Origin: Buttiauxella sp. | GTDB lineage: Bacteria > Pseudomonadota > Gammaproteobacteria > Enterobacterales > Enterobacteriaceae | DNA length: 64,000 nt | NCBI GenBank assembly: GCA_032000125.1 | Contig: DAMALH010000016.1 | Span: 2,580-66,579 of the forward strand | Reading direction: 5' to 3' | Shown here: piece by piece, positions 2,025 to 42,224 of the stretch | Layout of the letters: the number at the start of each line of letters is the position of its first letter | How positions within the stretch are numbered: the stretch's first letter is position 1 | Made by a program: the position numbers and the translations under genes | Notes under the pieces: model-generated | Told to the model about the DNA's origin: nothing | Databases searched by the model: none | What the model saw: the letters and a program-made list of their open reading frames with translations, nothing else

Positions 2025-2229
2025 AAAAAAAAGCACCGCGTTAAGCGGTGCTACATTAATCACTATGGACAGACAGGGTAAATGTACAGGAAGTGAAAAG
2101 GGGTAGCTTTGCTACCGGGGTCTGGAATGCCAGACCAATTGCAAACACAACAACACAACATCACAACCGTAAGCCAAAAGCCCTCCAGAACACGCATTCC
2201 AGACAGCTTTTCGTTCCGGCTCAGGAAGT
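2025..2229 (-). ncRNA. gcvB: GcvB small regulatory RNA
   Basis: The minus strand reads ACTTCCTGAGCCGGAACGAAAAG...GGCTTACGGTTGTGATGTTGTGTTGTTGTGTTTGCAATTGGTCTG...GTAGCAAAGCTACC...CACTTCCTGTACATTTACCCTGTCTGTCCATAGTGATTAATGTAGCACCGCTTAACGCGGTGCTTTTTTTT. This is near-identical to E. coli GcvB as I recall it, including the GU-rich R1 region and terminator. It is divergent from gcvA. Confidence 0.9.
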
Positions 2230-9274: not shown

Positions 9275-9454
9275 AGGCCCTCAATCGAGGGCCTCAGATT
9301 GCTGACCAGGAAGTAAAAAGCGTAGTTTTTCCTTCCTGGTGATTATCAGCTGAAAATTAATGGATTGATTTTCCTTGTTTTTAAACGACAGCCCTTTTTA
9401 GTTTTATCACGCTGGAAGTTTTGTCGTCAGTCTGAGGCCCTCAATCGAGGGCCT
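9275..9454 (+). repeat. MITE-like structured repeat, copy A: 140-bp core (9295-9434) flanked by identical 20-bp hairpin copies (9275-9294 and 9435-9454)
   Basis: The direct repeat is AGGCCCTCAATCGAGGGCCT, present twice. Core termini are CAGATTGCTGAC...GTCGTCAGTCTG (imperfect inverted repeats). Internal hairpins lie at 9305-9340 and 9352-9373. The core aligns along its length with 10890-11031 and with the reverse complement of 40612-40751. Confidence 0.8.
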
Positions 9455-10864: not shown

Positions 10865-11056
10865 ACCGCCCGCAGAAAGCGGGCGGTTTTACTTTTTGAC
10901 AAAGAAAGAAAAAACGTGGTTTTTCCTTCTTTGTGGTCATCTGTCGAAAATTAATGAATTAATTTTCCATGTTAATTTTTCATCGGGATATTTTCTTCTC
11001 GCTACCGCAAGAGATTTGTTATCCGTTTCTGACCGCCCGCAGAAAGCGGGCGGTTT
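10865..11056 (+). repeat. MITE-like structured repeat, copy B (diverged): 142-bp core (10890-11031) flanked by identical 25-bp hairpin copies (10865-10889 and 11032-11056)
   Basis: The direct repeat is ACCGCCCGCAGAAAGCGGGCGGTTT, present twice. Internal hairpins lie at 10899-10934 and 10946-10967, homologous to those of copy A. The element sits in the sdaC-sdaB intercistronic region. Confidence 0.75.
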
Positions 11057-15979: not shown

Positions 15980-16349
15980 ACAGGACGTCGAATAGTGAAG
16001 GCGACATCAGGATGACGTCCCTTCATGCGGAAGCGGAACACGTCAGGAAGGCGTTACAGGGAAGGCTTCAGGAAGAAGCAAGGAACCACTCAGGATGAGT
16101 AAGGGACACCTCCAGGAAGGAGAATGAGAGCCGAATCAGGGTGATTGGCGGGTCAGGAAGACTAAAGGATTTCGCAGCAGGATGATGCAGGACACCAGCA
16201 GGATGCCGGTTGCAGGATGCATGTACGATGGATTGTAGGTCAGGAGACCGCAGGACAAAGTTGTCACGGACGAGCAGGGAGCACTAAAAGTAGCCGGATT
16301 AGCTGCGAAACGAACCGGGAGCACTGTTTATACAGTGCTCCCTTTTTTT
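15980..16349 (+). ncRNA. csrB: CsrB, the CsrA-sequestering sRNA (5' end approximate)
   Basis: By my hand count there are more than 20 GGA triplets, many as CAGGA(U/A)G in short hairpin contexts (for example ACATCAGGATGACGT, CTCCAGGAAGGAG). The 3' end, GAGCAGGGAGCACTAAAAGTAGCCGGATTAGCTGCGAAACGAACC plus terminator GGGAGCACTGTTTATACAGTGCTCCCTTTTTTT, is almost identical to E. coli CsrB. The gene lies between syd and yqcC as in E. coli. Confidence 0.9.
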
Positions 16350-16419
16350 ATGCTTTTTTTCGCCAGGCCAAAGAAGTGATATGCTTGCCCGCTTTATTGG
16401 CCTGACGTATGAGGTTTTT

Positions 16420-39915: not shown

Positions 39916-40587
39916 ATGCAGTACCCGATTAACGAGATGTTCCAGACCCTGCAAGGGGAGGGCTATTTTACCGGTGTGCCCGCCATCTTTATCCGCCTGC
40001 AGGGCTGCCCGGTGGGCTGCGCGTGGTGCGATACCAAACACACCTGGGATAAACTCGCGGATCGTGAAGTGTCTCTGTTCAGTATTCTCGCCAAAACTAA
40101 AGAGAGCGATAAATGGGGCGCGGCAAGCGCGGAAGACTTGCTGGCCGTGATGCAGCGTCAGGGCTACACCGCCCGTCACGTGGTGATTACCGGCGGTGAA
40201 CCATGTATCCACGATCTGCATCCCTTAACGTCTTTGCTGGAACACCACGGCTTTAGCTGCCAGATTGAAACCAGCGGCACGCACGATGTCCGCTGCTCGG
40301 CGGCAACCTGGGTAACGGTATCGCCGAAGGTGAATATGCGCGGCGGTTACGACGTGCTTGCTCAGGCGCTGGAACGAGCGGACGAAATCAAACATCCCGT
40401 TGGCCGCATGCGCGACATCGAGGCGTTAGATGAGCTGCTAAGAACGCTTCACGATGACAAAAACCGCATTATCGCCCTGCAGCCTATCAGCCAGAAAGAA
40501 GACGCCACCCGGCTGTGTATTGAAACCTGCATTGCCCGCAACTGGCGGCTTTCGATGCAGACGCATAAGTACCTGAATATCGCCTAG
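39916..40587 (+). CDS. queE: 7-carboxy-7-deazaguanine synthase QueE (radical SAM)
   Basis: ORF track 39910..40587. MQYPINEMFQTLQGEGYFTGVPAIFIRLQGCPVGCAWCDTKHTW matches E. coli QueE. Confidence 0.95.
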   Translation: MQYPINEMFQTLQGEGYFTGVPAIFIRLQGCPVGCAWCDTKHTWDKLADREVSLFSILAKTKESDKWGAASAEDLLAVMQRQGYTARHVVITGGEPCIHDLHPLTSLLEHHGFSCQIETSGTHDVRCSAATWVTVSPKVNMRGGYDVLAQALERADEIKHPVGRMRDIEALDELLRTLHDDKNRIIALQPISQKEDATRLCIETCIARNWRLSMQTHKYLNIA

Positions 40588-40591
40588 TAAA

Positions 40592-40771
40592 AAGGCACCT
40601 GTCGGTGCCTTGAGACTGATGACAACCTCTCCAGCGTGACAAAACTAAAAAGTGCCGTCATTTAAAAACAAGGAAAATCAATTCATTGATTTTCATCTGG
40701 TAATCACAAAGAAGGAAAAACCACGCTTTTTTCTTCTTTGTCAGCAATCTGAAGGCACCTGTCGGTGCCTT
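40592..40771 (-). repeat. MITE-like structured repeat, copy C (inverted relative to A): 140-bp core (40612-40751) flanked by identical 20-bp hairpin copies (40592-40611 and 40752-40771)
   Basis: The direct repeat is AAGGCACCTGTCGGTGCCTT, present twice. The reverse complement of the core aligns base-for-base with copy A (CAGATTGCTGAC...TTGATTTTCCTTGTTTTTAA...TTTTTAGTTTT.TCACGCTGGA...CAGTCT). Internal hairpins lie at 40706-40741 and 40673-40694. Confidence 0.8.
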
Positions 40772-40775
40772 TTCC

Positions 40776-42224
40776 TTAGTCGACCAGCGGACTCAGCTTC
40801 TGCAACAGCGGGTCAAGGTACTGATTCACCTGCCGATAAACCCCTTCGTTAAGCTGCGTATAAAATGTGTGGTTGCCCATATTGGGCTGGAAGTTATCGC
40901 CCATGCGAATCATCTTCTCGCTCGCTTCCTCGTAGCTTGCGAATGTGCCCACCGCCATCCCGGCGTTAATTGCGCAGCCCACGGAGGCTGAACCTTTCAG
41001 CAGATTGCGGCAGGTTGGCACGCCGAACACGTCGGCAAAAATCTGCATAAACAGGTCGCTGTTGGCGCCGCCGCCGGAAATGATTAGCTGTTTAAACGGC
41101 GTTTTAAGCTCCAGCGCCATCTTGTCCATGTGATTTTTCATGGTGAAGGCAATGCCCTCCAGAATCGAGCGGTACATATGCGCCCGGGTATGGCGGCCGT
41201 CAAAACCAATTATCGTCCCTTTGCGGAACTCAGCCTCCGAAGGCGGCGCCCAGTCGTGAACGGTGATGAGCCCCTCGCAGCCTGCGGGTACTTTTGTGGC
41301 CTCGGCGTTGAGCAATTCTTCGATGGTTAAATCGAGGTCTTTCGCGTCCGCCAGCGCCGCGGCGCCAAACTGATCCCGGAACCAGCTTATCGTCCACATT
41401 CCCCGGCGAACGCCCATGCATTCATAGAGGTAGCGATGAGGAATCGAGGCCTGGAAAGGCCAGAAGTTTTGCGCGTCCTTCACGTTTTCATCGCCGTGGA
41501 CCATTGCGCCGATATAGGTACCCAGGGAGATAAGCGCCACGCCTTTCTCAAGCGTACCTGCACCAAGGGCTTCTACCGCTTTATCATGCGCCGTTGCCAC
41601 AACCGGAATACCGGCCGGAAGGCCAATAAGCCTGGCCGCTTTGTCAGTTAATTTGCCCAGCACTTCCCCCGGCTTCACCACGTCCAGCACCTGCGCGCGT
41701 TCAAGATTACAGCTCTTCCACGCCTGCGGATCGGTGCTCCAGTCGAGCGTGTCATTGTCCATCGGCCACCAGCCGATGTAGTTGGCGCAGGTATCCTTAA
41801 ACTCGCCGGTCAGGCGATGGGTGATATAGCCCGACGTCGTGGTGACGTAGCGCACGCCCTGATAGGCATCAAGGTATTCGTAAGGCTTGTTGAGTCGCTT
41901 ATCCATCCAGTTGATCACCGGGTAAGCCAGCTCGCCGTTGGCCGTCAGCAGCACGCGGCAGCAGCGCACGATGCAAATCCCCATCGCCTGAATTCGGCTG
42001 GTATCGCGTCCCTGGCGGGTAAAATTCGCCACCGCCTCGCGGAAGGCGACCTGTAACGAGTCCCACAGATCGTCATCGGGGTGCTCCGCCAGCAGCGGCG
42101 CGGGAATATCCAGATTGCGCAGCGCCTGTTTCCCTTCGCTGACCACGTTGCCCTGCGTATCAAAAATCACCACCTTGGCGCTTTGCGTGCCGACATCCAC
42201 ACCCATCAAATAGTTAGTTGTCAT
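40776..42224 (-). CDS. ygcE: FGGY-family carbohydrate kinase (YgcE-like)
   Basis: ORF track, 482 aa, with the N-terminal FGGY motif LMGVDVGTQSAKVVIFD. It sits next to queE as in E. coli. Confidence 0.8.
   Translation of the reverse strand: MTTNYLMGVDVGTQSAKVVIFDTQGNVVSEGKQALRNLDIPAPLLAEHPDDDLWDSLQVAFREAVANFTRQGRDTSRIQAMGICIVRCCRVLLTANGELAYPVINWMDKRLNKPYEYLDAYQGVRYVTTTSGYITHRLTGEFKDTCANYIGWWPMDNDTLDWSTDPQAWKSCNLERAQVLDVVKPGEVLGKLTDKAARLIGLPAGIPVVATAHDKAVEALGAGTLEKGVALISLGTYIGAMVHGDENVKDAQNFWPFQASIPHRYLYECMGVRRGMWTISWFRDQFGAAALADAKDLDLTIEELLNAEATKVPAGCEGLITVHDWAPPSEAEFRKGTIIGFDGRHTRAHMYRSILEGIAFTMKNHMDKMALELKTPFKQLIISGGGANSDLFMQIFADVFGVPTCRNLLKGSASVGCAINAGMAVGTFASYEEASEKMIRMGDNFQPNMGNHTFYTQLNEGVYRQVNQYLDPLLQKLSPLVD

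Follow-up and report, generated by a model that had tools for sequence, protein, structure and literature searches.

An old copy of a 140-nt non-coding mobile element at the common, putative terminator hairpin of queE and a ygcE-like gene

The queE/ygcE spacer and the repeat family

The locus lies in a 64,000-nt stretch of Buttiauxella sp. DNA (contig DAMALH010000016.1), referred to here, at its full length, as the window. An ORF encoding QueE (TIGR04322, 371 bits) faces a convergent ORF for a ygcE-like kinase of the FGGY family, and between the two the sequence AAGGCACCTGTCGGTGCCTT is present twice, as identical 20-nt hairpins (40592-40611 and 40752-40771) that enclose a 140-nt core (40612-40751), the family orientation of which corresponds to the minus strand. 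The left hairpin is located 4 nt past the queE stop codon TAG (40585-40587), and the right hairpin 4 nt from the stop codon of the ygcE-like gene (40776-40778, minus strand). The preliminary description of this DNA had reported the pair of repeats and a core whose reverse complement matches a second repeat, copy A; both are indeed present, and the alignment of the core with copy A shows 86% complementarity over the full length. The window also encodes two RNAs that score above the Rfam gathering threshold, CsrB (15985-16352, plus strand, 278 bits) and GcvB (2025-2229, minus strand, 189 bits). The features of copy C, the repeat in the queE/ygcE spacer, and those of copies A and B are as follows.

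40592-40611, no strand: left copy of the duplicated target hairpin, AAGGCACC-TGTC-GGTGCCTT
40612-40751, minus strand: MITE core of copy C, non-coding, 140 nt, delimited by the repeat pair, the genome matches and the alignment
40737-40751, minus strand: family left terminus CAGATTGCTGACAAA, with 15-16 nt identical to the left ends of an IS1182-family IS and of YPAL
40612-40626, plus strand: family right terminus, GAGACTGATGACAAC when read inward, an imperfect TIR
40706-40741, no strand: stem 1, a hairpin just inside the terminus, identified by covariation, a consensus fold on both strands and the folding z-score
40673-40694, no strand: stem 2, the palindrome GAAAATCAAT-TC-ATTGATTTTC, both strands of which conform to the IHF consensus WATCAANNNNTTR
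40752-40771, no strand: right-hand hairpin of the duplicated pair (putative terminator), identical to the left one over 20 nt
9275-9454, plus strand: copy A, core 9295-9434 between two hairpins AGGCCCTCAATCGAGGGCCT
10865-11056, plus strand: copy B, core 10890-11031 between two 25-nt hairpins ACCGCCCGCAGAAAGCGGGCGGTTT

The left hairpin of copy C folds into 8 bp with a 4-nt loop and forms a perfect 20-nt direct repeat with the right one. The right terminus is an imperfect inverted repeat of the left terminus (a count on the sequence gives matches in 11 of the 16 positions), and stem 1 consists of 15-nt arms (40706-40720 and 40727-40741) separated by a loop of 6 nt that reads GCGTGG on the family strand, with one G-T pair on the plus strand, which is equivalent to an A-C pair on the minus strand. 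The bounds of copy A (flanks 9275-9294 and 9435-9454) were read from the sequence and differ by one base from the arms returned by the repeat finder. Copy B represents a subfamily whose 3' half differs, so that only the first ~85 nt are common with copies A and C. In the alignment, stem 1 reads ACCAGGAAG/CTTCCTGGT in copy A and ACAAAGAAG/CTTCTTTGT in copies B and C, whereas stem 2 ends in TCAAT/ATTGA in copy C and in TTAAT/ATTAA in copy B, and reads TTAAT/ATTGA in copy A; all the stem sequences originally quoted for the three copies were recovered.

The queE/ygcE repeat is an old copy of a 140-nt non-coding mobile element that inserted at the putative terminator hairpin common to the two genes. 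Such a repeat exceeds chance on the genome scale: the element occupies 64 places in the 4.14-Mb genome (76 contigs, 54% G+C), 41 of these as full-length copies of ~140 nt and 23 either truncated or reduced to the 5' module, and perfect 20-nt direct repeats abutting both ends of the core recur at most copies, with a different sequence at each locus. A search of the genome with the core of copy C yields, together with the self match at 100%, 42 matches of at least 82 nt, 40 of which are longer than 100 nt. The element is a mosaic that combines a conserved 5' module of 88 nt with variable 3' halves; it has no coding capacity and is bounded by TIRs of ~15 nt, (C/G)AGAYTGMTGACAAA, with the imperfect inverted repeats CAGATTGCTGACAAAG and GAGACTGATGACAAAC conserved across the copies. 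The copies in the window's genome have a median pairwise identity of 86% and a maximum of 95%. Short, non-coding, dispersed, equipped with TIRs, surrounded by target-site duplications for which empty sites exist, and sharing its ends with an autonomous element, the repeat has the features of a MITE.

Beyond this genome, the 5' 88 nt are found, with 80-99% identity, in 18 of 120 further genomes drawn from across the GTDB family. The 18 genomes represent one per genus, except for a second Dryocola. The module occurs in Scandinavium, Dryocola, Buttiauxella, Cedecea, Serratia grimesii, Klebsiella sp. and Enterobacter sp.; the element was not found in the E. coli genomes searched. Three more MITE families of the window's genome resemble this one in the type of terminus and in duplicating hairpins, but their cores are unrelated (C6:16972-17290 together with C46:9753-9900 as one family, C21:1811-1980 and C1:102276-102440). 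The C6/C46 family, the C21 family and the family described here have in common the centre AAAA(G)CGTGGTTTT of the hairpin just inside the terminus; the family at locus L145 carries this centre as the reverse complement, GAAAACCGTGTTTTC, and the C1:102276 family has ACATGG instead.

Duplication of whole hairpins and empty sites

The flanks were surveyed in 169 copies, from the window's genome and from fetched loci, with a threshold of at least 10 nt for a direct repeat. A flanking direct repeat is present in 140 of the 169 copies, and 115 of 137 flanking repeats are complete GC-rich hairpins that are specific to the locus and span 16-31 nt (median 22), with 77 of the 115 being perfect. The length of the direct repeat closely follows the span of the hairpin (r=0.90). 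Thus, the element duplicates the entire hairpin regardless of hairpin length (16-31 nt), and each of the two joints falls at one foot of the hairpin. When the genome was scanned for any arrangement of the type hairpin-X-hairpin, with no use of the sequence of the element, almost all that emerged were elements with this type of terminus, including the three further families named above, along with a few tRNA-related repeats.

The target hairpins lie at the 3' ends of genes, and 100 of the 115 are preceded by an A run, followed by a T run, or both, a signature that appears to be that of intrinsic, often bidirectional, terminators. In the queE hairpin, the stem takes up part of the T run, and for this reason a simple terminator scan did not flag it.

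The two hairpin copies are in direct orientation at 108 sites and inverted with respect to the loop at 4 of the 115 sites. At the loop-flipped sites (L145:about 1520-1720, which is the queE terminator of genome G122, L062:4521, L075:6206, L105:4462 and, in the window's genome, G000, C43:30267), the flanking hairpins are mutually reverse complementary, with loops such as GGAA versus TTCC. The flip may reflect either inversion of the loop after insertion or an alternative resolution of the insertion itself.

Empty sites separate the element from its target. In nine congeners, the queE hairpin (AAGGCACC-loop-GGTGCCTT) is single and directly follows queE; in one of these loci (L143, from genome G129), the flanks of the single hairpin are contiguous with the ygcE-like neighbor, at 87% identity. 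Four genomes (G129, G127, G124 and G125) have an empty site at the position of copy A; in G122, an insert of ~140 nt probably occupies it. The queE hairpin itself was hit independently in G122, where it carries a member of another MITE family whose termini are of this type. In most of the congeners, queE is followed by a neighbor other than the ygcE-like gene, so that the junction with the ygc cluster varies within the genus; the spacer there contains REP-like GC-rich palindromes (L151, L150, L152 and L154).

Given that the flanking hairpins differ from locus to locus and are single at the empty sites, they are target DNA rather than a part of the element. This bears directly on the reading of the repeat as an element of the BIME/REP type that depends for its mobility on a RAYT (REP-associated tyrosine transposase), with the flanking hairpins as its own REP units. 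The hairpin-core-hairpin layout, a core site of the IHF type and the occurrence in tandem arrays do resemble BIME-1/RIP of E. coli, but the locus-specific flanking hairpins and the empty sites contradict this reading, and the element was not found in the E. coli genomes, so that a BIME identity is exceedingly improbable. The tandem arrays, of the form hairpin-MITE-hairpin-MITE-hairpin, occur at C4:63385-63735, C8:59106-59430 and C6:16972-17290 in the window's genome, and also at loci L035 and L128; they look like BIME clusters and show repeated insertion into an already duplicated hairpin.

The two internal stems

The preliminary description had proposed that compensatory substitutions preserve both internal stems, i.e. 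that the secondary structure is under selection, and had named a statistical covariation analysis of all genomic copies as the way to examine this. The analysis used 59 copies from the window's genome, chosen without reference to the stems, with 15 bp considered for stem 1 and 9 bp for stem 2; the fetched loci that had been selected by stem 1 words are biased for stem 1 and were used only for stem 2 and the flanks. Over both stems, 95.8% of the cells are paired. Ten pairs are changed on both sides, compared with 2.2 in the shuffles, and 15 cells are changed on both sides versus 2.5 expected; none of 500 shuffles reached the observed covariation, and the slid controls are far lower. Nine of the ten pairs belong to stem 1, in which 9 of the 15 pairs are accordingly changed on both sides; these derive from about nine or ten separate events. 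The consensus fold retains both stems on either strand, and stem 1 folded as DNA has a z-score of -7.2. Stem 1 is therefore conserved as a structure, and its covariation is real.

The proposal does not extend to stem 2. Across 149 distinct copies, the compensated pairs in this stem number 4 and the broken ones 50, copy B being nearly the sole compensated case; stem 2 is essentially invariant and is conserved as a sequence, not by compensation. As a single strand, it closes only 9 pairs because its centre is 2 nt, and this centre is located within 2 nt of the midpoint of the element. The IHF consensus WATCAANNNNTTR is matched in stem 2 of 154 of 167 copies, in 144 of these on both strands. Genome-wide, there are 298 matches in 4.14 Mb, or 0.07 per kb, and ~120 of the 298 (about 40%) fall inside this MITE family. 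A consensus search found the IHF-type site neither in the IS described below nor in the other MITE families, so that IHF cannot be a general requirement, and its role as a requirement is doubtful.

The compensatory changes might, in principle, have arisen free of selection, through quasi-palindrome template switching during replication, with the covariation signal inflated by subfamily structure. Some double changes are indeed common to related copies: the ACCAGG/CCTGGT form of copy A also occurs in C25:4288, a copy of another subfamily, and CAGG/CCTG is found in three copies; furthermore, covariation shuffles can be beaten by related sequences, and the flipped loops at 4 of 115 sites demonstrate that within-strand events do occur in these hairpins. 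Against this stand the about nine or ten independent compensatory events at 9 different pairs, the rarity of false positives of the both-sides-changed measure in test trials, and the fact that five MITE families and four IS copies have hairpins of unrelated sequence that are all equally distant from the terminus, a recurrence that is hard to credit to mutation alone. Taken together, this makes an unselected origin of the changes quite improbable.

Four other MITE families possess a hairpin that is unrelated in sequence and begins 11-13 nt from the terminus, and so does either end of the IS; when the hairpins just inside the termini of the MITE families and the IS are folded as DNA, the z-scores range from -2.8 to -7.2. 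The right ends of the MITEs, folded in the same manner, have no hairpin just inside (z-score about 0). The covarying hairpin would belong to the transposon end.

Alternatively, the stems could be kept as transcribed RNA, e.g. as a structured 3' UTR that protects or destabilizes the upstream mRNA, or as a small RNA. The element resides inside the 3' ends of convergent genes, where co-transcription is to be expected, the near hairpin being devoid of a T run; the part of PMC2229807 that summarizes De Gregorio 2006 describes YPAL as co-transcribed and as altering the levels of upstream transcripts; and, as noted above, the consensus fold holds both stems on both strands and stem 1 covaries. Several observations speak against this reading. 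The orientation of insertion relative to the direction of the terminator is random (36 vs 28). The preliminary description had taken a single wobble pair as a hint that one strand is the folded one, but the two stems together contain 24 G-T pairs as read on the family strand and 47 A-C pairs, which imply a wobble on the other strand; the counts, many of which are shared by descent and are not independent, point opposite to that hint, which is not borne out. Rfam models applied to the window recover only CsrB and GcvB at the gathering score, with chance-level matches to the element at a permissive threshold, so that there is no match to an RNA family. The hairpin holds the same position at the IS ends, where a role in a host 3' UTR makes no sense; stem 2 is conserved as sequence rather than as pairing; and the copies in the window's genome are decaying, as indicated by their median pairwise identity. 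A function in RNA is, accordingly, an unlikely explanation, and stem 1 is better understood as a structure that mobility requires than as an RNA under selection.

Transposase, mechanism and relation to known elements

The search for a driver led outside the window's genome. Scandinavium sp. SGZ-S8 (G145) contains over 100 MITE termini per strand, with 14 pairs of MITE copies at least 98% identical, and carries a multi-copy IS that breaks the assembly. Rebuilt from the contig ends, this IS is 1595 bp long and encodes a protein of 491 aa that matches NF033551 (IS1182 family) with 496.7 bits against a cut-off of 270, as well as PF13751 and PF05598. Its ends read CAGACTGCTGACAAAG-hairpin and, read inward, CAGAYTGCTGACGAA-hairpin. 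The MITE termini (CAGAYTGCTGACAAA) match the ends of this IS and those of Yersinia YPAL: the left inverted repeat of the IS agrees with the MITE in 15 of 16 positions, and in all 16 for the copies with a C at position 5, whereas the right end of the MITE matches the IS ends more weakly (13/16). An interval of 7.3 kb between two termini in the same genome, considered as a possible autonomous element, turned out to represent two separate MITEs.

The IS leaves the same footprint as the MITE. Around three of the IS copies in SGZ-S8, an entire hairpin is duplicated (21, 27 and 26 nt). The fourth is inserted within stem 1 of a MITE (L162, L157; C59, C2) and has only a 7-nt duplication, ATAAAAC, which indicates that the element's own hairpin can be used as a target and that the duplication is not always that of the whole hairpin. 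According to ISfinder, IS1182 direct repeats vary between 0 and 60 bp. Genomes G002 and G073 and the Salmonella plasmid CP053580.1 contain related IS that agree with it in their termini and in the hairpins adjoining these on the inside. The IS in the plasmid (L173, 90322-92167) belongs to the IS1182 family, and is 81% identical to the Scandinavium IS; at least 60 nt of its flank are duplicated in inverted orientation around it, with hairpin loops TCT versus AGA, rather than as a simple direct duplication.

Searches of the window's genome (a draft that is 95% complete) with the IS, by blastn and tblastn, detected no IS1182 transposase, and pairs of termini separated by 250-15,000 nt and accompanied by a flanking repeat are only tandem MITEs, i.e. 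not an autonomous copy. Among 121 genomes, 6 encode an IS1182 transposase, none of these being among the 18 other genomes with the MITE 5' module. Co-occurrence is thus weak, and the link to the IS draws on the identical termini, the common footprint and one genome in which both are abundant; mobilization in trans by the DDE transposase of such an IS is most likely.

The whole body of evidence is best explained, with considerable confidence on our part, by a non-autonomous transposon with ends of the YPAL/IS1182 type that is driven by an IS1182-family transposase and duplicates whole terminator hairpins, its internal stems serving transposition. The element inserts at GC-rich stem-loops, most of them probable intrinsic terminators. 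Under this scheme, the transposase would recognize the target, and act on it, in its extruded form, a cruciform or hairpin, with one strand transfer at each foot of the hairpin. The feet are adjacent only in the extruded palindrome, which would explain why the length of the duplication follows the length of the hairpin. Stem 1 would correspond to the hairpin that each IS end has directly behind its 12-nt terminus, and both internal stems would act as DNA-level elements for transposition; stem 2, as a putative central bend of the IHF type, could fold the 140-bp element so that the ends meet. After insertion, the hairpin nearest to each gene would lose its T run, so that transcription of queE and of ygcE would be expected to proceed across the element as far as the distal hairpin; termination would be kept and the insertion would be nearly neutral.

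A more specific version of this scheme is conceivable but tentative: the IS1182-type transposase could be a structure-specific DDE enzyme that acts at the four-way junction of a cruciform or at a hairpin and knows its own ends by the hairpin located 12 nt from the cleavage site, the IHF bend being an addition of the MITE and the terminators a 'safe harbor' that is read by shape. If so, the length of the duplication would be set by the structure of the target and not by a fixed stagger.

The element is a clear case of a known kind, that of Yersinia YPAL with ends of the IS1182 family, rather than a new kind of system. With YPAL/RU-2 (sequence in PMC2759123, Table 1b), it shares the left end CAGACTGCTGACAAA, which matches in 14 of 15 nt, and a similar right end, ...TTTGTCA; both are non-coding, intergenic and multi-copy. 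In the account of YPAL given in PMC2229807, the target duplications are 3-26 bp and the targets span or adjoin dyad symmetries, and here, too, a duplication of variable length, 16-31 nt, coincides with a dyad symmetry, each one being a hairpin. The two differ in that local alignment detects no similarity past the 15-16-nt termini, in that YPAL is ~168 nt long and forms one long palindrome, unlike the 140 nt with two local stems of the present element, and in their host genera. A match confined to the termini combined with the two-stem fold makes the element a member of a YPAL superfamily, not of the YPAL family.

With the IS of the IS1182 family, the element shares the first 16 nt, CAGAYTGCTGACAAAG, followed by a hairpin, and the duplication of whole hairpins (21-27 nt in the IS); unlike the IS, it lacks a transposase, has a terminal hairpin at one end only and contains an IHF-type site that the IS does not have. 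IS1272 of staphylococci, also of the IS1182 family, targets stem-loops (PMC5678879), and palindrome targeting in this family is attributed there to Siguier et al. IS1272, however, reportedly replaces the stem-loop without duplication, whereas here the stem-loop is duplicated.

The contrast with BIME is that the hairpins of BIME-1/RIP, which also display the order hairpin, core with an IHF site, hairpin and form tandem arrays, are conserved REP units of the element, whereas those flanking the present core are locus-specific target DNA. The Correia elements (NEMIS) of Neisseria duplicate TA, do not target hairpins and are unrelated in sequence. Their likeness is that of MITEs of ~105-155 bp with TIRs, an internal IHF-binding site and co-transcription (PMC2229807), to which the IHF-type site recognized here by sequence corresponds.

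Against this background, the family provides a clean and well-populated example of a mobile element that recognizes the shape of DNA, in the form of terminator hairpins, rather than sequence, and that would leave termination intact. It ties orphan enterobacterial repeats of the YPAL type to IS1182-family transposases through identical ends and a common footprint and, for the purposes of genome annotation, accounts for duplicated terminators and for about 40% of the IHF-consensus matches in the window's genome.
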